Source: a phage
Assembly (NCBI GenBank): GCA_021537435.1
Contig: GCA_021537435.1_3050.1
Reading direction: 5' to 3' (one strand)
DNA: 64,000 nt
Shown here one piece after another: positions 22,885 through 40,666 of the stretch (positions are counted from its first letter, which is position 1; each line of letters starts with the position of its first letter). Below the pieces are notes generated by a model. That model was not told the origin of the DNA and did not search any database. It was given only the letters and a program-made list of their open reading frames with translations. The position numbers and the translations under genes were made by a program.

Positions 22885-27004
<4,120 letters not shown>

Positions 27005-27034
27005 TTTGAATAAATATCCTTAAAAGGAGGGTCT

Positions 27035-27691
27035 ATGGCAGCACCTAGAATATCATTTTCGCCCTCTGATATTCTGTTGGGTGTTCTAGATCGCTTGTTC
27101 AAAGATAACGCTACCGGGAAGGTTCTTGCTTCCCGGGTAGCTGTCGTAATTCTTTTGTTTATAATGGCGATTGTTTGGTATAGGGGAGATAGTTTCTTTG
27201 AGTACTATAAGCAATCAAAGTATGAAACATACCGTGAAATTATTGAAAAGGAAAGAAATGCACGCTTTGAATCTGTCGCCCTGGAACAACTCCAGATAGT
27301 TCATATATCATCTGAGGCAGACTTTAGTGCGGTGTATTCTTTCCGCCCTAAAAACTTAAACTATTTTGTTGATATTATAGCATACGAAGGAAAATTACCT
27401 TCAACAATAAGTGAAAAATCACTTGGAGGATATCCTGTTGATAAAACTATGGATGAATATGCAGTTCATTTAAATGGACGTCATTATTATTCCAACTCAA
27501 AATTTGCTTTTTTACCAACTAAAAAGCCTACTCCCGAAATAAATTACATGTACAGTTGTCCATATTTCAATTTGGATAATATCTATACTGGAACAATAAC
27601 CATGTACTGGTATAGAAATGATCATATAAGTAATGACCGCCTTGAATCAATATGTGCTCAGGCGGCCAGAATATTAGGAAGGGCTAAATAA
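27035..27691 (+). CDS. t: holin
   Basis: 218-aa ORF MAAPRISFSPSDILLGVLDRLFKDNATGKVLASRVAVVILLFIMAIVWY...; one TM helix, large periplasmic domain. Confidence 0.9.
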   Translation: MAAPRISFSPSDILLGVLDRLFKDNATGKVLASRVAVVILLFIMAIVWYRGDSFFEYYKQSKYETYREIIEKERNARFESVALEQLQIVHISSEADFSAVYSFRPKNLNYFVDIIAYEGKLPSTISEKSLGGYPVDKTMDEYAVHLNGRHYYSNSKFAFLPTKKPTPEINYMYSCPYFNLDNIYTGTITMYWYRNDHISNDRLESICAQAARILGRAK

Positions 27692-27964
27692 TTATTTGTT
27701 TGTATACATCTCTAGATATCGATATACACCCTCAAAACCCTCGTTGAATTCGTCGATGAGGGTTTTCTTATCTTCTTGGGTTAATTCAGAAACAATTTTA
27801 CGGAATGAATTCTGATTTAACTTTCTACCTTCATGCGTTACTCCAATCTCATTCAGAAATGCAATAAAATTAGCACGATTCTCAACAATATCTTCTCTGG
27901 AAAATTTAATCAAAATAGATGCAACAGTAATAATTTCACGAACTGTATCAATGTTTTTATTCAT
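27692..27964 (-). CDS. asiA: anti-sigma-70 factor AsiA
   Basis: 90-aa ORF MNKNIDTVREIITVASILIKFSREDIVENRANFIAFLNEIG... Confidence 0.9.
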   Translation of the reverse strand: MNKNIDTVREIITVASILIKFSREDIVENRANFIAFLNEIGVTHEGRKLNQNSFRKIVSELTQEDKKTLIDEFNEGFEGVYRYLEMYTNK

Positions 27965-28125
27965 TAACTATACCACTCAATTAGTTGACTTTGTTATAAT
28001 ATCATCAGACGCTTGATTTGTAAACTGGTCTGTGTTATTTTCTTCAAAAATTTTTTCTACGAATTCCTTGAACGACTCACGTTCCTGAGCTACATTGTGC
28101 TCGATTACCTTTTCAAGATTATGAC

Positions 28126-28404
28126 TCATTCGAAATAATCTTCAATTTCGTAATCATGGACATAAATCATTATAGTTTTTAATACATCATCAATACTTTT
28201 TCCTGGAGCTGGAATTACGTAAAAATATCCTACTTTTGAGAGGTCTTTATAAGTTCCAATTAAGAAATCGTTATTCTCAAGATGTAGTTCTTCAACTAAT
28301 TCATTGACAATTGAGTGGTATAAATTTGGTAGTAACTTGTATAGCTTTTCTAGAATATCAATTTTGATTGTATATTGAACCACAGACTGAGAATCAATAA
28401 TCAT
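28126..28404 (-). CDS. arn: anti-restriction nuclease inhibitor Arn (acidic DNA-mimic protein)
   Basis: 92-aa acidic ORF MIIDSQSVVQYTIKIDILEKLYKLLPNLYHSIVNELVEEL... Confidence 0.65.
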   Translation of the reverse strand: MIIDSQSVVQYTIKIDILEKLYKLLPNLYHSIVNELVEELHLENNDFLIGTYKDLSKVGYFYVIPAPGKSIDDVLKTIMIYVHDYEIEDYFE

Positions 28405-28487
28405 AGACCTTCCCCTTATGTTTCTGTTTGCGATTAGATTCTTTAAACGCTTTCTTCTTATCCTTATGGACAGAAGCTTTATTAAAA

Positions 28488-28706
28488 TTATGTTTTGCGA
28501 CTAAATTGTTCATAGTGCTGAATTACCTCTCTTAAACATTTGCATGTGAATGAAAACTTTTTAGCTACACCACATTCAAATATATGTTCTCTTAAATCAC
28601 GTGTGTCAGTATATCCCATCTCAACGATAAAATGCCGTATTAGATTTTTATCTTTATCATTGAGAGAATTAAAATAATCGGATTTTGAATTAATTTCCCT
28701 GGCCAA
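28488..28706 (-). CDS. hypothetical protein
   Basis: 72-aa ORF with paired Cys (CGVAKKFSFTCKC). Confidence 0.4.
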   Translation of the reverse strand: MAREINSKSDYFNSLNDKDKNLIRHFIVEMGYTDTRDLREHIFECGVAKKFSFTCKCLREVIQHYEQFSRKT

Positions 28707-28986
28707 ATTGAATCACCTTCAGTTGACGTTTTAGCTCTTTTATCATCTCTTCATTCATCGCAATATAAAGATCACGTAAAGCAGGTTTTAACATTCCATT
28801 TATTGGAGAACTAAATGGGCATACATAATCTTTTCCTACGAGCTTTTTAGTGAATTCCATATTACAGAACTGAAATGCTGGTTCATTGGCATAAATTCCC
28901 CATTTAGTTGACATCATTTTATTGGCATATTCCAGCGCCTGAATTTGATTCATAATTCCATCAATTTGAAACTTTTTAATATTCAT
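28690..28986 (-). CDS. hypothetical protein
   Basis: 98-aa ORF, overlapping neighbours. Confidence 0.4.
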   Translation of the reverse strand: MNIKKFQIDGIMNQIQALEYANKMMSTKWGIYANEPAFQFCNMEFTKKLVGKDYVCPFSSPINGMLKPALRDLYIAMNEEMIKELKRQLKVIQFGQGN

Positions 28987-29447
28987 TAGTAAAGGTCCTC
29001 AGAGTAAAGTTCTTTTTCACTACCACCACGTTCAATACGTACTTGTCCGGCGTAAGTTGCAATAATCATTGCTTCTTCACGTGTCCAATAATTACTATAT
29101 TGGTCAATAAACCCTTGGTCATCATCACAAACTTGCTGAGTAACTAATTGGGGTTTAACTACATCTAAAACTTCGGCCATATCTTTAGAATAATGACGAG
29201 CACCTGGAATAACAAGAGTTCGTCCATCTTTTAATTTAAAACGATTGGCTGCGCAAACAATTCGTCGTTGATACTTTTGATTTTCATCCCAATATGCAGA
29301 CTGCCAACAGATTTCAGGAACTTCTTTTAAAATATCTTCTTCTGTATATTCACCGTTGTAAGAAGCTAATTTAGCAGCCAGACTTTCTGGAGTCTCACGT
29401 GACAAAGCTTTATCTAACAGAGCTAAACGTTCTTTAAAAGTTTTCAT
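28986..29447 (-). CDS. hypothetical protein
   Basis: 153-aa ORF, start/stop overlap with neighbours. Confidence 0.45.
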
Positions 29448-29773
29448 TTAAACCATCCTTTAATACGCTGCCATAAAGTTTTCTGTTGAGCTTTGTTAAC
29501 GCCAATTGAGCGAATAACTGGTTGAGATTCCTGAAATTCTTTATAATCAGCAAGGTAAATTTCGTAAGCTGCATCCGTAAAGGAACTTATCGCTGCCATA
29601 AAATTATTGCGAATACCTACTGGAGCATCTTTACTTTCACGAATAATCATGTATTTACCAGTCTTAATCTTTACAATAGTTCCAAGATAAGCCCCATGGT
29701 ACCAGATGTCCCACCCCTCTTGAGTGGGTTCTGCACAACGACGAAGTTCATTAACAATTTCTAACTTGTTCAT
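29444..29773 (-). CDS. hypothetical protein
   Basis: 109-aa ORF downstream of motA. Confidence 0.45.
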
Positions 29774-29783
29774 TATTTATTCC

Positions 29784-30419
29784 TCACAGTTCAGATGCTA
29801 CGGTGATTACTGCTTCAATGTTTTCTGCCGAGCGTTTAATGTCAAGATACACATTACCGTTTTTAGCGATTTTACATGACATTCCGATATCAGTAAATTT
29901 CTGAATATGGTGTTCCATCATTTTGTATCCAAAAATTCGCATATTTCCATTGTTGTTAATTTCAAAATTGCGAATTCCGTGAGTGCGTTTTTCTAAAATA
30001 GCGAGATAGTTACTACGATAAGTTTCAACCTTTTTAAGAACAAATCCATTTTCATCTAAAAGTTTTAACATGAAGTCTTTATCTTCTTCCATATCAGAAG
30101 TAATCTCGCGAGCTTTACGAGTTGCTCGTTTTTTCAGCAGTTCAGGAGCATTTTCCTGTGCATATAAAGTTGCCGCATTTGAAATAATATCCTGAGCTTC
30201 ACCAGTAATGATTAATCCATCACCAGATTTCTCCACCAGGCCTTTTTTAATCAATACCCCAATATTACTATTAACTACTGCGTTACCTAAATCTGGATGC
30301 ACCTCACGAACTTCTGCAGCTGTAATGAAATCTTTCTTAGCAATGGTAATTAAAATCGCAGCAGTTTTTTCATTCAGAACATCGTTAGAAGCTTTGATGA
30401 TGTAAGTTACTTTAGACAT
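29784..30419 (-). CDS. motA: middle-promoter transcription activator MotA
   Basis: 211-aa ORF MSKVTYIIKASNDVLNEKTAAILITIAKKDFITAAEVREV... Confidence 0.85.
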   Translation of the reverse strand: MSKVTYIIKASNDVLNEKTAAILITIAKKDFITAAEVREVHPDLGNAVVNSNIGVLIKKGLVEKSGDGLIITGEAQDIISNAATLYAQENAPELLKKRATRKAREITSDMEEDKDFMLKLLDENGFVLKKVETYRSNYLAILEKRTHGIRNFEINNNGNMRIFGYKMMEHHIQKFTDIGMSCKIAKNGNVYLDIKRSAENIEAVITVASEL

Positions 30420-30460
30420 TTTCTAATCTCCGTAATTCTGTATCAGTAGTTGATAGTTGT

Positions 30461-30489
30461 ATAGTACCACAGTATGCTTTGGTTGTAAA
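30461..30489 (-). promoter_or_regulatory. early promoter, conserved cassette, upstream of motA
   Basis: rc GGTTTACA, 17 nt, TACTAT; near-identical to the copies at 34322 and 60412. Confidence 0.55.
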
Positions 30490-30511
30490 CCGTTTTGTGA
30501 AAAAATTTTTG

Positions 30512-30541
30512 AAATAAAAAAGGGAGAGCCGAGGCTCTCCC
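30512..30541 (-). terminator. rho-independent terminator
   Basis: hairpin GGGAGAGCC/GGCTCTCCC followed by U-run (minus strand). Confidence 0.6.
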
Positions 30542-30546
30542 TAAAA

Positions 30547-30696
30547 TTACTGCATGACTGTGATAACTGTCATGATAACACGTTGAATTCCGAACGCAAG
30601 AAGACCTCCTGCTATGGCAGGAACAACACCTAAACCCGCCAGTAAAATGCTACCAGATACTAATGCCGCGCTTGTAATACCAATGAATGGACTCAT
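30547..30696 (-). CDS. small hydrophobic membrane peptide (49 aa)
   Basis: rc ORF MSPFIGITSAALVSGSILLAGLGVVPAIAGGLLAFGIQRVIMTVITVMQ; ATG overlaps gene 52 stop; below track cutoff. Confidence 0.4.
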   Translation of the reverse strand: MSPFIGITSAALVSGSILLAGLGVVPAIAGGLLAFGIQRVIMTVITVMQ

Positions 30697-32021
30697 TTGA
30701 TTTCCTCTAAATCTTTAGTGTATTCTGTAACTACATCAGTAGTTTTCCAATATTCGTTTTCTTCTTTTTTAGCTTTAGCTTCTTCAGCAAGTTTCTTTGC
30801 TTCATCGGAAGTCATATGAAAAATATTCATTCCAACTAGTTTATCAACATAAGAAGAATACATATCAATTTTAGAAAGTTCTTCGGTCAGTTCTTTGCGA
30901 GTTTTACCTTGTATAACAATTTCACCTGAAATTACTTTCTTAATGAAATGCGCCTTGGCAAAGGCTAAACGAAATGCTGATTCAGTTTCTTTGATTTTGT
31001 TATCAATTCGTTTTTGGACATAAGTTTTACGAACTTCAACGAAGTCTTTAATTAAATCAACTACGTTATCGTAAACTTGCAGCTTTCCTTTCTCATTAAT
31101 GACTGTAATATTCTGAGAACGACGCTCAATCAACCCGAAGTCTTTCATGATTTTTGCATGGCGTTCTTCTTCGTTATCACTCAAAGAGTATTCTTTGCGG
31201 AATTTAACTTTAAAGCCAAAACCATGCTCACCACAAGCATCATCCCATGTAATGAAGCCTTTATCTTCAAGCGGGTCTAAGATTTTACTCACATAAGTTT
31301 CACGATCATACTTATACGGAATCTCAGTGATATTCATTTGAGTTCGTGAAGTAAACTTGTACGTTCCACGAATTTCATATTGACCGTCAATTTCAACGAC
31401 TTCACCACGAAATTCTGGGAATTCTACCTTCGGTTTAGTTACTTTCTTTCCTTGAAGAGCTTGCAATACAGCTTTCTTGACAGAAGAAACACTATGAGGA
31501 AGAATGTAAGTTGCATAACCAGTTGCAATACCGGAAACACCATTAAGAAGAACAGTAGGAATAATAGGCAAATAGAAAGCAGGAGGAATGTGTTCTTTAT
31601 CTTGATGTACCGGAGCATATTCAGTATCTTTATATACGTTATAGAAATTTTTACTTACACGAGCAAAAATATAACGACTTGCTGCTGCTTTTTGAACAGT
31701 ACGAGAACCAAAGTTTCCTTGACCATCTAACAAAGGAAAGTTATTATTCCAAGTGTTAGCCATCAAAGCCCCCGCATCTTGCGCAGAGTTTTCACCATGA
31801 TGATATCCAAGGTCTGCTACACCACCTGCAATAGAAGCGAGTTTGTGAAACTTATCTTTATTTCCACGTGCCAAATCGAGAGCTCGAGCAATAACAAATC
31901 GTTGAACTGGCTTAAATCCATCAATCATATTTGGGATAGCACGATTTTCAACCGTGTACATAGCATAAGCCAATGCTTCATTATCAATGATACTTTTTAA
32001 ATCGCGATTATTCAGTTGCAT
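30693..32021 (-). CDS. 52: DNA topoisomerase II medium subunit gp52 (GyrA-like)
   Basis: 442-aa ORF; ...GFKPVQRFVIARAL... and active-site Tyr region. Confidence 0.9.
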   Translation of the reverse strand: MQLNNRDLKSIIDNEALAYAMYTVENRAIPNMIDGFKPVQRFVIARALDLARGNKDKFHKLASIAGGVADLGYHHGENSAQDAGALMANTWNNNFPLLDGQGNFGSRTVQKAAASRYIFARVSKNFYNVYKDTEYAPVHQDKEHIPPAFYLPIIPTVLLNGVSGIATGYATYILPHSVSSVKKAVLQALQGKKVTKPKVEFPEFRGEVVEIDGQYEIRGTYKFTSRTQMNITEIPYKYDRETYVSKILDPLEDKGFITWDDACGEHGFGFKVKFRKEYSLSDNEEERHAKIMKDFGLIERRSQNITVINEKGKLQVYDNVVDLIKDFVEVRKTYVQKRIDNKIKETESAFRLAFAKAHFIKKVISGEIVIQGKTRKELTEELSKIDMYSSYVDKLVGMNIFHMTSDEAKKLAEEAKAKKEENEYWKTTDVVTEYTKDLEEIK

Positions 32022-38587: not shown

Positions 38588-38791
38588 TTAATTCATATTA
38601 CGCTTAATAACTTCAGCAACTTCTAGTAGTTCATCTTTAGTTGCAGTGTCGGATTGAATTTTATCTCTAATATCTTTAAAGCGGTTTTTAAATTCTTCGG
38701 CTTCTCCCATATCGAAAAAGCGTTGAATGATTCTATATTCTCGATGAACTGCTTTATCAAAAAGTTCTAAATTTACTTTATATGATTTCAT
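38588..38791 (-). CDS. hypothetical protein (T4 rIIA.1 position)
   Basis: 67-aa ORF immediately upstream of rIIA. Confidence 0.5.
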
Positions 38792-38845: not shown

Positions 38846-40666
38846 CTATTGGCTCATCCATTCTTTACGAAGATCAGCATTATCTCCCATGAGCATTTCA
38901 AAAAGCTCTTTCCAGTTCTCAGGAAGTTTAACAACATCATATACTGGGTTTTGAATCATCTCACGATATTCAGATTTTTCCAAAGAGCCAAGTCCTTTAA
39001 TATAACGGATGCTATGTTTAGGTAGAGCATCTTTGGCACTCTCATATTCAGCGACTGTATAAAACCATTCTTGTTTTTTACCGACCTGAGCGATGATTAC
39101 AGGAGTTTTGACAAAGCGAATTCTTCCTTGCTCAAACAATTCTGGCCAATTACTAAAAAATCCGAGCAGAGAAGGATAAATGCTTCCTAGACCATCATGG
39201 TCAGCATCAGTCATAATAGCGATATTATGATAATTCAAGTTTTCAGCTTTTTCACCGAGAACTAGACCAGTGATTGCGCAAATATCAAATAGTTCTTTGT
39301 TTTTAAGCATATCTGCATAAGACATACCCCAACTGTTGAGAACTTTACCACGTAATGGATAACCACCATGAAGTTCTTTATCACGAACATCAATAAGATA
39401 TCCGATAGCAGAATCACCCTCAGTCAAGAAAAGAGTAGTGTCAGCATCTTTACCGCAAAGATTCGCTTTAATATGTTTATGAACCTTTGCCTTAGAGGCC
39501 TTTTTAGCTGCTTTAGTTTCAGCTGCTTTTTCTGCTGCCAATTTACGAGCCAAGGCAGCTTCAATAATTGGCATCAAAATAGCTTCATTATTTAGAATAG
39601 CGCGTGAAATCTTTTTAGCATCAAGTTGAATATGACTACGAATTTCACCAAATGGAGAAGTCAAACGCTCTTTAGTTTGAGAGTCAAATCGCATGTTTTT
39701 CATATCGCGAACAAACATAACGATAGTCAAACATTCTTTAACACGTGCTTTAGTTACATCAATTTTGAATTTACGTTTGATTTGTGGAATAAGGTCTTCA
39801 CAAATATCATCCATAACACAGTCAATGTGATGGCCACCATTCTTAGTATGAATGTTATTGACGTACGTCAACTGACGAAAACCATCCGGTGAACGACCAA
39901 CCGCAATAGAACAATTTTCTTGTTCTTGAACAATAGCATGTTCATCATACTGTCGTGCATATTTCTTAAAATTGCCCTGAACCTTTTTACCATTAAAGGT
40001 AAATTGAATATCAGGATAAACAACTGCGAGTGTCTGGAGACGATCCAGTGTAATGTCAAGATAAACTTGGGACAGCTCATTAGTTTCAAATGACATAAAA
40101 TCAGGAATGAAAGTAACACGAGTTCCTTTCCATTTTCCAGGAATATCTTCCCATGATTTATTTTCCATGCCATTTGAACAACGAACTACAATATTATTTT
40201 GACCGTCGCCAGTTTCACCAACAAACATCACAGAAAAAATGTTTGTCAAACTAGAACCAACACCATTCATACCGCCAGTGACGCGTTCTTTATCATCACC
40301 AAAGTTACCACCTGCTTTTGGAATAGTCCATGCAGCAACAGGACCAGGAATTTCTTCACCAGTAGGTGTTTTAACCATAGCCTGTGGAATACCACGACCG
40401 TTATCTTCAACTGTTACCTGATTATTTTTAATAGTAACATTAATTTTATTTGCGAATTTAAACTTAGTACGAATACCTTCATCTACTGAGTTATCGATAA
40501 TTTCATCAATAAGCTTAACAAGACCAGGTACATACTGAACACTTTCCCATTTACCAAACAGAAAGCGCTCATGCATTTCATTAGCAGAAGAGCCAATGTA
40601 CATGCCGCTACGCTTTTTGATATGTTCAATATCGCTCAGAATTTTAATTTCATTCTTAATCATCAC
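38846..40666 (-). CDS. 39: DNA topoisomerase II large subunit gp39 (GyrB-like), single uninterrupted 606-aa ORF
   Basis: GHKL ATPase motifs (DNGRGIP) and TOPRIM region in one frame; no separate gene 60. Confidence 0.9.
   Translation of the reverse strand: MMIKNEIKILSDIEHIKKRSGMYIGSSANEMHERFLFGKWESVQYVPGLVKLIDEIIDNSVDEGIRTKFKFANKINVTIKNNQVTVEDNGRGIPQAMVKTPTGEEIPGPVAAWTIPKAGGNFGDDKERVTGGMNGVGSSLTNIFSVMFVGETGDGQNNIVVRCSNGMENKSWEDIPGKWKGTRVTFIPDFMSFETNELSQVYLDITLDRLQTLAVVYPDIQFTFNGKKVQGNFKKYARQYDEHAIVQEQENCSIAVGRSPDGFRQLTYVNNIHTKNGGHHIDCVMDDICEDLIPQIKRKFKIDVTKARVKECLTIVMFVRDMKNMRFDSQTKERLTSPFGEIRSHIQLDAKKISRAILNNEAILMPIIEAALARKLAAEKAAETKAAKKASKAKVHKHIKANLCGKDADTTLFLTEGDSAIGYLIDVRDKELHGGYPLRGKVLNSWGMSYADMLKNKELFDICAITGLVLGEKAENLNYHNIAIMTDADHDGLGSIYPSLLGFFSNWPELFEQGRIRFVKTPVIIAQVGKKQEWFYTVAEYESAKDALPKHSIRYIKGLGSLEKSEYREMIQNPVYDVVKLPENWKELFEMLMGDNADLRKEWMSQ

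Follow-up and report, generated by a model that had tools for sequence, protein, structure and literature searches.

We analysed a 64,000-nucleotide (nt) stretch of phage DNA (contig GCA_021537435.1_3050.1 of NCBI GenBank assembly GCA_021537435.1; hereafter the window) and, within it, the block of small minus-strand open reading frames (ORFs) between asiA and motA, at positions 27965-29773. The block is already known as a set of uncharacterised T4 genes, and arn.1-arn.4 have been without a function for decades even though T4 is the best-studied phage. Sequence comparisons indicate that one of its products, Arn.3, starts with a stretch (residues 1-31) homologous to the two-helix domain at the N-terminus of CmdA, which serves as antitoxin in the defence system CmdTAC. 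We tentatively propose that Arn.3 acts in counter-defence as an orphan-antitoxin-type protein, with a hairpin that would bind CmdT-family toxins and with targets that would differ between alleles. The CmdA-like hairpin thus gives the orphan Arn.3 a candidate partner, CmdT, and hence a testable function. The gene and its two parts lie as follows:

28986-29447, minus strand: arn.3, 153 amino acids (aa), matching phrog_839 at E 7.7e-73.
29355-29447, minus strand: CmdA-like two-helix module, arn.3 codons 1-31, from PADLOC, BLASTP, a CmdA hidden Markov model (HMM) and AlphaFold2 (AF2).
28989-29315, minus strand: globular alpha/beta core, arn.3 codons 45-153, with precomputed PF26092, from alignment and AF2.

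CmdTAC, or PD-T4-9, is a P2-prophage-borne toxin-antitoxin-chaperone (TAC) system that acts on T-even phages (PMC9519451, PMC11618068). The SecB-like chaperone CmdC guards CmdA, and the T4 capsid protein Gp23 captures CmdC; the freed CmdA is degraded by ClpXP, whereupon CmdT ADP-ribosylates mRNA, translation is blocked and the infection is aborted (PMC9519451, PMC11618068). CmdT activity is seen from about 10 min (PMC11618068). Expressing cmdT together with cmdA in E. coli MG1655 is toxic, since CmdA undergoes degradation (PMC11618068). The PADLOC model PD-T4-9_B matched residues 1-31 of Arn.3 with positions 1-31 of its 77-position profile (34.3 bits, E 6.9e-9). With a published primer as query, we recovered the cmdTAC locus of an E. 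coli P2-like prophage, in which the order is CmdT-CmdA-SecB and CmdA begins MLSFEQRMALLNKALQQYNPESLYEKLSSY. BLASTP aligned Arn.3 with this CmdA at 57% identity over 30 aa (E 4e-9), and identity of the Arn.3 N-terminus to Serratia CmdA was 70%. An HMM built from 13 bacterial CmdA sequences only, searched against the 1,196 six-frame ORFs of the window, detected Arn.3 at E 8e-10 and its next match at E 2.2. The AF2 model has helices at residues 4-16 and 20-29. Over the N-terminal 30 residues, CmdA and Arn.3 are thus 57-70% identical, and both are predicted to form this two-helix hairpin.

When 5.8 billion proteins were searched with a profile of the module, the matches were confined to CmdA-family antitoxins and apparent truncated copies of Arn.3. 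The short matches P0322-P0326, considered as stand-alone hairpin genes, look like such truncated copies and were rejected, as was a faintly hairpin-like, rIIA.1-like 67-aa ORF located 5' of rIIA (38588-38791, minus strand), which scored E 0.29 among the window ORFs and was not significant. Nucleotide identity between the arn.3 module and cmdA is 52% overall and 32% at third codon positions. These values indicate an old relationship in which protein similarity was kept by selection; given the third-position value, the idea that the module was acquired recently from cmdA by horizontal transfer was rejected.

Arn.3 itself does not qualify as a CmdA; the N-terminal domain is all that the two have in common. 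CmdA continues into a disordered chaperone-addiction (ChAD) tail that Arn.3 lacks: the match ends at profile position 31 of 77, and residues 45-153 of Arn.3 are globular in the AF2 model. Arn.3 also lacks the Ala-Ala ClpXP degron; it ends in LYSEDLY in nearly all aligned homologues, whereas CmdA proteins end in LAA, QAA or EAA (LDLAA in E. coli). Nor does a CmdT or SecB-like gene adjoin it. PADLOC detected no other CmdTAC component among the seven small ORFs scanned (asiA, arn and motA lay outside the scan), and the immediate neighbours of arn.3 are arn.4 and arn.2. Instead, a short acidic linker joins the hairpin to a phage domain of 110 aa. Arn.3 combines the features by which an orphan antitoxin is recognised: it is an antitoxin homologue, no toxin is encoded among the seven small ORFs, and both its RNA and its protein are early in T4, ahead of the CmdT activity seen from about 10 min.

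The core belongs to a large phage family. At E<=1e-3 there are 157 Arn.3 homologues; of the 120 listed, almost all carry PF26092. Residues R61, A66, A67, R84, H85, Q111, G112, F113, D115, R123 and Q135 are invariant among 38 diverse homologues; the family motifs GxRH, DQGFID, TREEA and C-terminal SEDLY are present in the window protein, and its gene is syntenic with T4 arn.3. The AF2 model is confident over residues 41-130 (predicted local distance difference test score, pLDDT, 89-98). Searched against 1.84 billion representative proteins, a profile of the core gave 3,444 clusters at 50% identity (E<=1e-3); many members are stand-alone proteins of ~95 aa, and in some the core is the C-terminal module of a 200-430-aa protein. 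Ten of these longer proteins showed no domains in Pfam, and the core itself matched neither LPD nor other models in the local Pfam copy. A Foldseek search of the viral structures in BFVD matched the core to phage proteins that include 'large polyvalent protein associated domain' proteins of 767-1,354 aa. The core thus recurs as a module of polyvalent proteins (PMC5512222), although the T-even Arn.3 is small, early-expressed and not part of a giant injected protein. Among cellular reference genomes the core is rare: a pattern-based scan of 185,579 species-representative genomes found it at only two loci, both in phage-like stretches of metagenome-assembled genomes, and no toxin-antitoxin-like context was seen at either. 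We also considered whether Arn.3 could be a toxin fused to an antitoxin, its core being CmdT-like; an hhalign probability of 0.1% ruled this out. The first-pass annotation of the block, made from the DNA letters, had reported no evident catalytic motifs. For Arn.3 this was too strong, given a core with invariant R61, R84, H85, Q111, D115 and R123 among others.

Hypervariability within the block is confined to the N-terminal module of Arn.3. In arn.3 codons 1-44, the window and T4 differ at a synonymous proportion (pS) of 0.59 and a non-synonymous proportion (pN) of 0.28, versus pS 0.10 and pN 0.011 for the core, where pN/pS is 0.02-0.2. Between the window and phage Bas36, the arn.3 N-terminus has eight non-synonymous changes and one synonymous change. 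Two hairpin alleles can be told apart by their scores with the CmdA HMM: a T4-type allele, MNPFINRLKMLNVPL, at 13-15 bits, and a CmdA-like allele at 24-35 bits, to which the window belongs (35.1 bits). The window-type segment occurs at >=90% identity in about 137 phage records, and by sequence the window/Bas36 allele appears closest to the Serratia/Lelliottia type. Both hairpin types, the CmdA-like (38.9 bits to PD-T4-9_B) and the T4-type, stand in tandem in the Arn.3 of some T4-like phages, represented by a 203-aa homologue (P0007), which looks as if two specificities had been stacked. Other Arn.3 homologues have unrelated N-terminal modules on the same core. The pattern of variation suggests an arms-race signature and would favour a conflict interface.

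Published plating data allowed us to compare the allele with sensitivity to CmdTAC. Twelve T-even phages of the BASEL collection have been plated on cmdTAC, and only Bas35 and Bas38 escape (PMC11618068). We took efficiencies of plating (EOPs) from the source data of that paper and read the Arn.3 allele from each genome:

Bas35: EOP 0.85; CmdA-like allele.
Bas38: EOP 0.32; CmdA-like allele.
Bas36: EOP 5e-6; CmdA-like allele, almost identical to that of the window.
Bas46: EOP 3e-5; CmdA-like allele.
Bas37: EOP 6e-7; T4-type allele.
Bas39: EOP 6e-6; T4-type allele.
Bas40: EOP 3e-5; T4-type allele.
Bas43: EOP 4e-6; T4-type allele.
Bas44: EOP 1e-4; T4-type allele.
Bas45: EOP 8e-6; T4-type allele.
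Bas41, Bas42 and T4: restricted according to the text of the paper; T4-type allele.

The T4-type allele is carried by nine phages (T4, Bas37 and Bas39-45), every one of them restricted, six with EOPs of 1e-4 to 6e-7. The known route of escape from CmdTAC is a C-terminally extended Alt.-3. A natural extension of this kind was ruled out as the cause of Bas35 and Bas38 insensitivity, since Alt.-3 has 96 aa in the four phages examined; its sequence in T4 equals that in Bas35, and its sequence in Bas36 equals that in Bas38. We found no published explanation for the escape of these two phages, and alt.-3 is wild-type in both; the Arn.3 allele may bear on it. In Bas35 and Bas38, a longer, Tyr-rich linker, YT[EN]YTEEDVL, follows the hairpin and is absent from the sensitive CmdA-like alleles, a comparison that covers two phages only.

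In the mechanism that we propose, a degradation-resistant Arn.3 hairpin would dock onto a CmdT-family toxin once the cell's own CmdA is destroyed. Arn.3 would then neutralise the toxin directly, or bring its core to the toxin or to the product of the toxin, and the hairpin allele carried, of two ancient types, would set its specificity. Several observations weigh against this proposal. The CmdA-like allele is present in two of two insensitive and in two of 11 sensitive phages, a difference that is not significant (one-sided Fisher p 0.077). Bas36 and Bas46, at 32.4 and 30.1 bits with the CmdA HMM, are fully restricted by the CmdTAC of ECOR22, and the case of Bas36 shows that a hairpin of the window type does not suffice against the ECOR22 system. 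Moreover, the insensitive Bas35 and Bas38 score lower (24-26 bits) than this sensitive pair. The core has neither a recognisable catalytic fold, by PDB sequence searches and Foldseek, nor a relation to CmdT, by hhalign. Finally, that the hairpin is the CmdT-binding part of CmdA is itself inferred, from TAC architecture and the CmdTAC authors' AlphaFold model. A more specific, two-part version of the proposal is rather unlikely. Here, the hairpin would target CmdT-family mRNA ADP-ribosyltransferases, the core would inactivate the toxin or strip ADP-ribose from mRNA, and the alleles and tandems would match CmdT/CmdA variants of enterobacterial P2-like prophages.

We rate another reading about equally with the orphan antitoxin: the hairpin may be a shared structural module, serving dimerisation or intramolecular docking without any role in CmdT binding, with CmdA and Arn.3 derived from a common small helical domain and with Arn.3 and its neighbours acting as generic early host-takeover factors on central host machinery. 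This would account for the presence of the most CmdA-like hairpins, those of Bas36 and Bas46, in fully CmdTAC-sensitive phages, and for the mostly hydrophobic or helix-capping nature of the conserved positions (F4, R7, L10-L11, L15 and P20-E-S-L23). The core occurs in thousands of phage proteins without the hairpin, which implies that the main function of the family is independent of it, and the flanking genes are host-takeover genes (AsiA, MotA and Ndd neighbours). A generic module would, however, be expected in more contexts than the CmdA family and apparent Arn.3 copies that the 5.8-billion-protein search returned. Moreover, Arn.3 shares the hairpin specifically with a defence system aimed at T-even phages. 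The evolution of the hairpin is far more rapid than that of the core, and it has ancient alleles, as is typical of conflict interfaces and not of structural elements. It is also conceivable, but quite unlikely, that Arn.3 engages CmdTAC at a different step or in the reverse direction, either by competing with CmdA in the folding of CmdT or because CmdA evolved from a captured fragment of arn.3; the core would then hold the actual activity, such as reversing the ADP-ribosylation of RNA. CmdT is insoluble without CmdA (PMC11618068); it depends on CmdA for folding, and a competing Arn.3 hairpin could therefore prevent the build-up of active toxin. The enzyme-like invariant polar residues of the core fit such a role, a toxin-binding module joined to a second domain recalls two-domain antitoxins, and Bas35 and Bas38 share the Tyr-rich linker. 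Against this, the idea is wholly inferential, the linker argument depends on two phages, and the core has no likeness in fold or sequence to macrodomains, ARH, NADAR or any solved hydrolase. The earlier suggestion of an anti-defence island gains support from the homology of the Arn.3 N-terminus to CmdA and from the occurrence of the core in polyvalent conflict proteins; the plating data speak against a simple version of it.

The orphan-antitoxin reading has precedents in T-even biology. T4 Dmd acts as an antitoxin mimic against RnlA and LsoA. T4-like phages also carry orphan antitoxin-like enzymes against DarTG1, whose toxin is, like CmdT, an ADP-ribosyltransferase (PMC11257639). In these cases, as for Arn.3, a lytic phage expresses early an antitoxin homologue without a toxin. 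They differ in that the Dmd and DarTG1 cases are proven genetically and biochemically, while Arn.3 has a 30-residue domain only, which the plating data show to be insufficient against the one CmdTAC tested. If the reading is correct, Arn.3 would be another instance of the capture of an antitoxin part by T-even phages to defeat an ADP-ribosyltransferase defence, and it would provide the first handle on a phage domain family of >3,400 sequence clusters.

The remainder of the block is that of T4. Positions 27600-30500 of the window have matches in 820 phage records, the top match being 97.5% identical, and the stretch is collinear with T4 at 97% nucleotide identity without rearrangement. On this basis, we assign the window phage to the T4-like genus Tequatrovirus and the small ORFs to the T4 genes arn.1, arn.2, arn.3, arn.4 and asiA.1 (T4p261-T4p256). 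The genes of T4, and of the 'arn operon' of T2, are orthologous to those of the window in ~97% identity, order, strand, early expression and ArcZ pairing. Tightly packed, they follow one another on the minus strand as motA > arn.4 > arn.3 > arn.2 > arn.1 > 39-aa ORF > arn > asiA.1 > asiA, with only 10 nt between the motA stop codon and the arn.4 start:

29784-30419, minus strand: motA, middle-transcription activator and upstream boundary, 211 aa; Pfam MotA_activ/MotCF (PF09114/PF09158), E 5e-61 and 9e-67.
29444-29773, minus strand: arn.4, 109 aa, isoelectric point (pI) 9.2; phrog_1594, E 2.5e-54.
28690-28986, minus strand: arn.2, 98 aa, pI 9.2; phrog_1844, E 1e-49.
28488-28706, minus strand: long form of arn.1 with a TTG start, 72 aa, all 72 residues spanned by phrog_4452.
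28394-28513, minus strand: unannotated 39-aa ORF, DUF7230; PF23876, E 1.2e-11; phrog_1359, E 5e-23.
28126-28404, minus strand: arn, DNA-mimic inhibitor of McrBC, 92 aa; Pfam DM_Arn PF22134, E 2.4e-52; T4 annotation.
27977-28129, minus strand: asiA.1, 50 aa, acidic, pI 4.6; phrog_3762, E 7e-38.
27692-27964, minus strand: asiA, anti-sigma-70 factor and downstream boundary, 90 aa; Pfam AsiA PF09010, E 1e-42.

Each of arn.1-arn.4 and asiA.1 matches its own PHROG family at E 1e-31 to 1e-73, and arn is the sole member of the block whose function is known. The ORFs of 72, 98, 153 and 109 aa named in the first-pass annotation exist on the minus strand, with the sizes that it gave, and AsiA, Arn and MotA flank or interrupt the block as it had said, by their Pfam matches. 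The ORF of about 50 codons that it had placed at 27970-28125 exists at 27977-28129, and a sixth gene, the 39-aa ORF, had been overlooked. Gene order is the same in T4 and in the majority of the 12 T-even phages that we examined from BASEL. Bas42 lacks arn.1 (L016 5140-5240) and keeps the 39-aa ORF; Bas35 has an additional 51-aa ORF, unrelated to the hairpin, between arn.3 and arn.4 (L004 10841-10996); and in Bas38 and Bas46 the left half is strongly divergent, with asiA 74% and arn.2 40% identical and a different Arn type. The block is therefore mosaic among phages.

We asked whether the short ORFs are genes by comparing the window codon by codon with 11 phages (T4 and ten BASEL T-evens) and pooling the results. 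The pooled pN/pS values were 0.08 for arn.4, 0.14 for the 39-aa ORF, 0.15 for arn.1, 0.26 for arn.3, 0.28 for arn.2 and 0.37 for asiA.1, alongside 0.14, 0.07 and 0.20 for the known genes asiA, arn and motA; all comparisons are pairwise with the window, so that shared substitutions are counted more than once, and the direction of the result is clear. No in-frame stop codon was found in any ORF across the 11 relatives. We conclude that every ORF of the block is under purifying selection, beyond what chance ORFs would show. Chance frames in intergenic or regulatory RNA are accordingly a very improbable explanation of asiA.1, the 39-aa ORF and the N-terminal arn.1 extension. The frames are very short, the 39-aa ORF and the arn.1 extension are absent from the T4 RefSeq record, and a study of T2 treats the 70 nt between arn.2 and arn.1 as intergenic and places an RNase E site there. 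Nevertheless, all three are under in-frame purifying selection (pN/pS 0.14, 0.15 and 0.37), close relatives differ only synonymously in the 39-aa ORF and the arn.1 extension, and this extension has a canonical Shine-Dalgarno sequence and TTG start, with ATG in a divergent allele. In addition, dedicated Pfam and PHROG families exist, and AsiA.1 is listed in T4 proteome tables.

T4 proteome and transcriptome tables class arn.2, arn.3 and arn.4 as early RNA and early protein, arn.1 as early RNA with a middle protein class, and asiA.1 as early RNA with a late protein class (PMC9697503 supplement). Scans of the window for promoters and terminators gave the following:

30461-30489, minus strand: early-type sigma-70 promoter of motA, TTTACA-17-TACTAT with extended TG (promoter scan).
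30521-30542, minus strand: strong intrinsic terminator just upstream of the motA promoter (terminator scan).
27996-28024, minus strand: early promoter of asiA within the 3' part of asiA.1, TTTACA-17-TATTAT with TG (promoter scan).

Transcription that continues through motA into the block likely starts at the motA promoter. From motA to asiA, the minus strand showed no terminator-like site combining a good stem with a T-tail, no match to the MotA-box middle promoter TGCTT-N13-16-TANNNT was found in 27600-30800, and Rfam families gave only sub-threshold chance matches in 27000-31000. The early-type promoters and the lack of a MotA box inside the block indicate that the label 'early' is right. 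The earlier description of the block as uncharacterised early ORFs is thus borne out by these promoters and by early RNA in the T4 tables, as well as by a recent preprint on T2, which calls the functions of the arn genes unknown and offers 'counter-defence' as a guess (bioRxiv 10.64898/2026.06.19.733364). Beside the motA promoter we noted a further small gene, motA.1 (30547-30696, minus strand), between gene 52 and the motA terminator. It encodes 49 aa, almost all of them hydrophobic and rich in Gly, Ala and Ile; its pN/pS is 0.13, and it is probably a small membrane peptide.

Three features of the block differ from the T4 record. The record gives arn.1 as 43 aa from an internal ATG (T4 RefSeq). 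The 29 codons 5' of that ATG have a pN/pS of 0.15, with 24 synonymous and no non-synonymous changes among close relatives. A TTG at 28706-28704 is preceded, at 6-nt spacing, by the Shine-Dalgarno sequence AAGGTGA (28719-28713), and the arn.1 allele of Bas38 and Bas46 has ATG ATG at the equivalent start, retains DSKADYFNS...IRHFI and lacks the ArcZ site described below. From the synonymous-only upstream codons, the Shine-Dalgarno sequence with TTG, and the ATG ATG of the divergent allele, we deduce an Arn.1 of about 72 aa rather than 43. Residues H41, C45, C57 and H64 of this protein are conserved in both allele types and could form a metal site. The second feature is the 39-aa ORF, MNNLVAKHNFNKASVHKDKKKAFKESNRKQKHKGKVYDY (pI 10.2, net charge about +9), annotated neither in T4 RefSeq nor in BASEL genomes. 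Its overlaps are 11 nt with arn and 26 nt with arn.1, and its product is identical in nine relatives despite 15 synonymous changes, with no non-synonymous change; the first 25-39 residues are common to four other PHROG families. Both the 72-aa Arn.1 and the 39-aa gene are thus supported here and absent from the T4 record. The third is the start of arn.4: at the equivalent of 29771-29773, T4 has ATA, whereas the window and most relatives have ATG. The 68-aa annotation of T4 arn.4 results from this ATA in the laboratory strain, which is either a start-codon mutant or initiates at ATA; in the window, the intact ATG gives 109 aa. A further difference from T4 is the CmdA-like allele of Arn.3 in the window.

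In T2, the host small RNA ArcZ pairs with arn.2 at +285..+294 (bioRxiv 10.64898/2026.06.19.733364). The window has the site CCAGGGAAAT at 28693-28702 (minus strand), in the last codons of arn.2, a 10-nt perfect complement of the conserved ArcZ sequence AUUUCCCUGG. It occurs once in the 64-kb window, where 0.11 chance matches are expected, and corresponds to +285..+294 of arn.2, the same position as that reported for T2. The ArcZ sequence was confirmed by Rfam RF00081 in an E. coli locus, and the pairing rests on the exact 10-nt complement, as RNAduplex over long windows was uninformative. Pairing of host ArcZ at the arn.2/arn.1 junction, published for T2, would here too tune the expression of part of the block. 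If Arn.1 has 72 aa, the '70-nt intergenic region' of T2 with its proposed RNase E site is coding (window 28620-28719, the N-terminal 29 codons), and the ArcZ site lies inside the coding start of arn.1, in codons 2-5, two nt past the start codon. The 72-aa Arn.1 and the 39-aa gene thus alter the reading of the T2 ArcZ and RNase E data.

The other proteins of the block gave few clues to function. Arn.1, Arn.2, Arn.4 and AsiA.1 had no match in the local Pfam copy, the six block proteins had none in NCBIfam, and sequence searches of the PDB, run for every protein singly and also with Arn.3 and Arn.4 profiles, returned nothing under E 0.27. Each of Arn.4 (PF26821), Arn.2 (phrog_1844), Arn.1 (phrog_4452), AsiA.1 (phrog_3762) and the DUF7230 protein (PF23876) has both a full-length match to its family profile and the family's position between motA and asiA. 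Structure prediction, which the first-pass annotation had recommended, gave AF2 models of Arn.3 (pLDDT 88) and Arn.4 (pLDDT 83), and Foldseek matched neither to a solved structure, with no PDB hit under E 0.08 and TM <=0.33. The Arn.4 model has an N-terminal helix, a five-stranded antiparallel sheet with helices, and a poorly modelled stretch; the protein's C-terminus is conserved, basic and amphipathic. Its 55 homologues are all from T4-like phages, all carry precomputed PF26821 and mostly have 107-119 aa. No search of Pfam, NCBIfam, PHROGs, PDB sequences or Foldseek revealed homology to structural or metabolic proteins, consistent with the earlier view of the block. From context, we suggest that Arn.1, Arn.2, Arn.4, AsiA.1 and the 39-aa protein most probably bind host or defence proteins as well. 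Their small size, extreme charge (about +9 for the 39-aa protein and about -6 for AsiA.1) and position among AsiA, Arn and MotA fit small protein binders, as context and not as evidence.

Many GenBank labels would instead make arn.1-arn.4 'anti-restriction nucleases' related to Arn, a view that we regard as scarcely tenable. Such labels stand in phage records and on phrog_4452. Arn.1-4, however, have no match to PF22134, which detects Arn itself at E 2.4e-52; sizes, charges and predicted folds differ, Arn.1, Arn.2 and Arn.4 being basic; and the arn.N names denote map position only, the labels having been propagated. More generally, 'anti-restriction nuclease' on arn.1-arn.4 homologues in GenBank, UniRef and PHROG, and 'Rad50 ATPase' on one neighbour, appear as propagated labels without sequence support.

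When the literature was searched for the gene names and protein accessions, the T2 ArcZ preprint and omics tables were all that came up. The literature searched, from which most subscription papers are absent, gave no report of the link between Arn.3 and CmdA, of the 72-aa Arn.1 or of the 39-aa gene.

Two other loci of the window set the phage apart from T4. The large subunit of the topoisomerase (38846-40666, minus strand) is a single 606-aa ORF. In T4 this subunit is split between genes 39 and 60, the latter containing a translational bypass; by its undivided ORF, the phage is nearer to T2 or T6 than to T4. The gp38 gene (26213-27004, plus strand) encodes a 263-aa glycine-rich adhesin of the type found in T2 and T6, in contrast to the 183-aa assembly chaperone of T4; the adhesin type implies a receptor-recognition module unlike that of T4, although the adjoining early genes are 97% identical.

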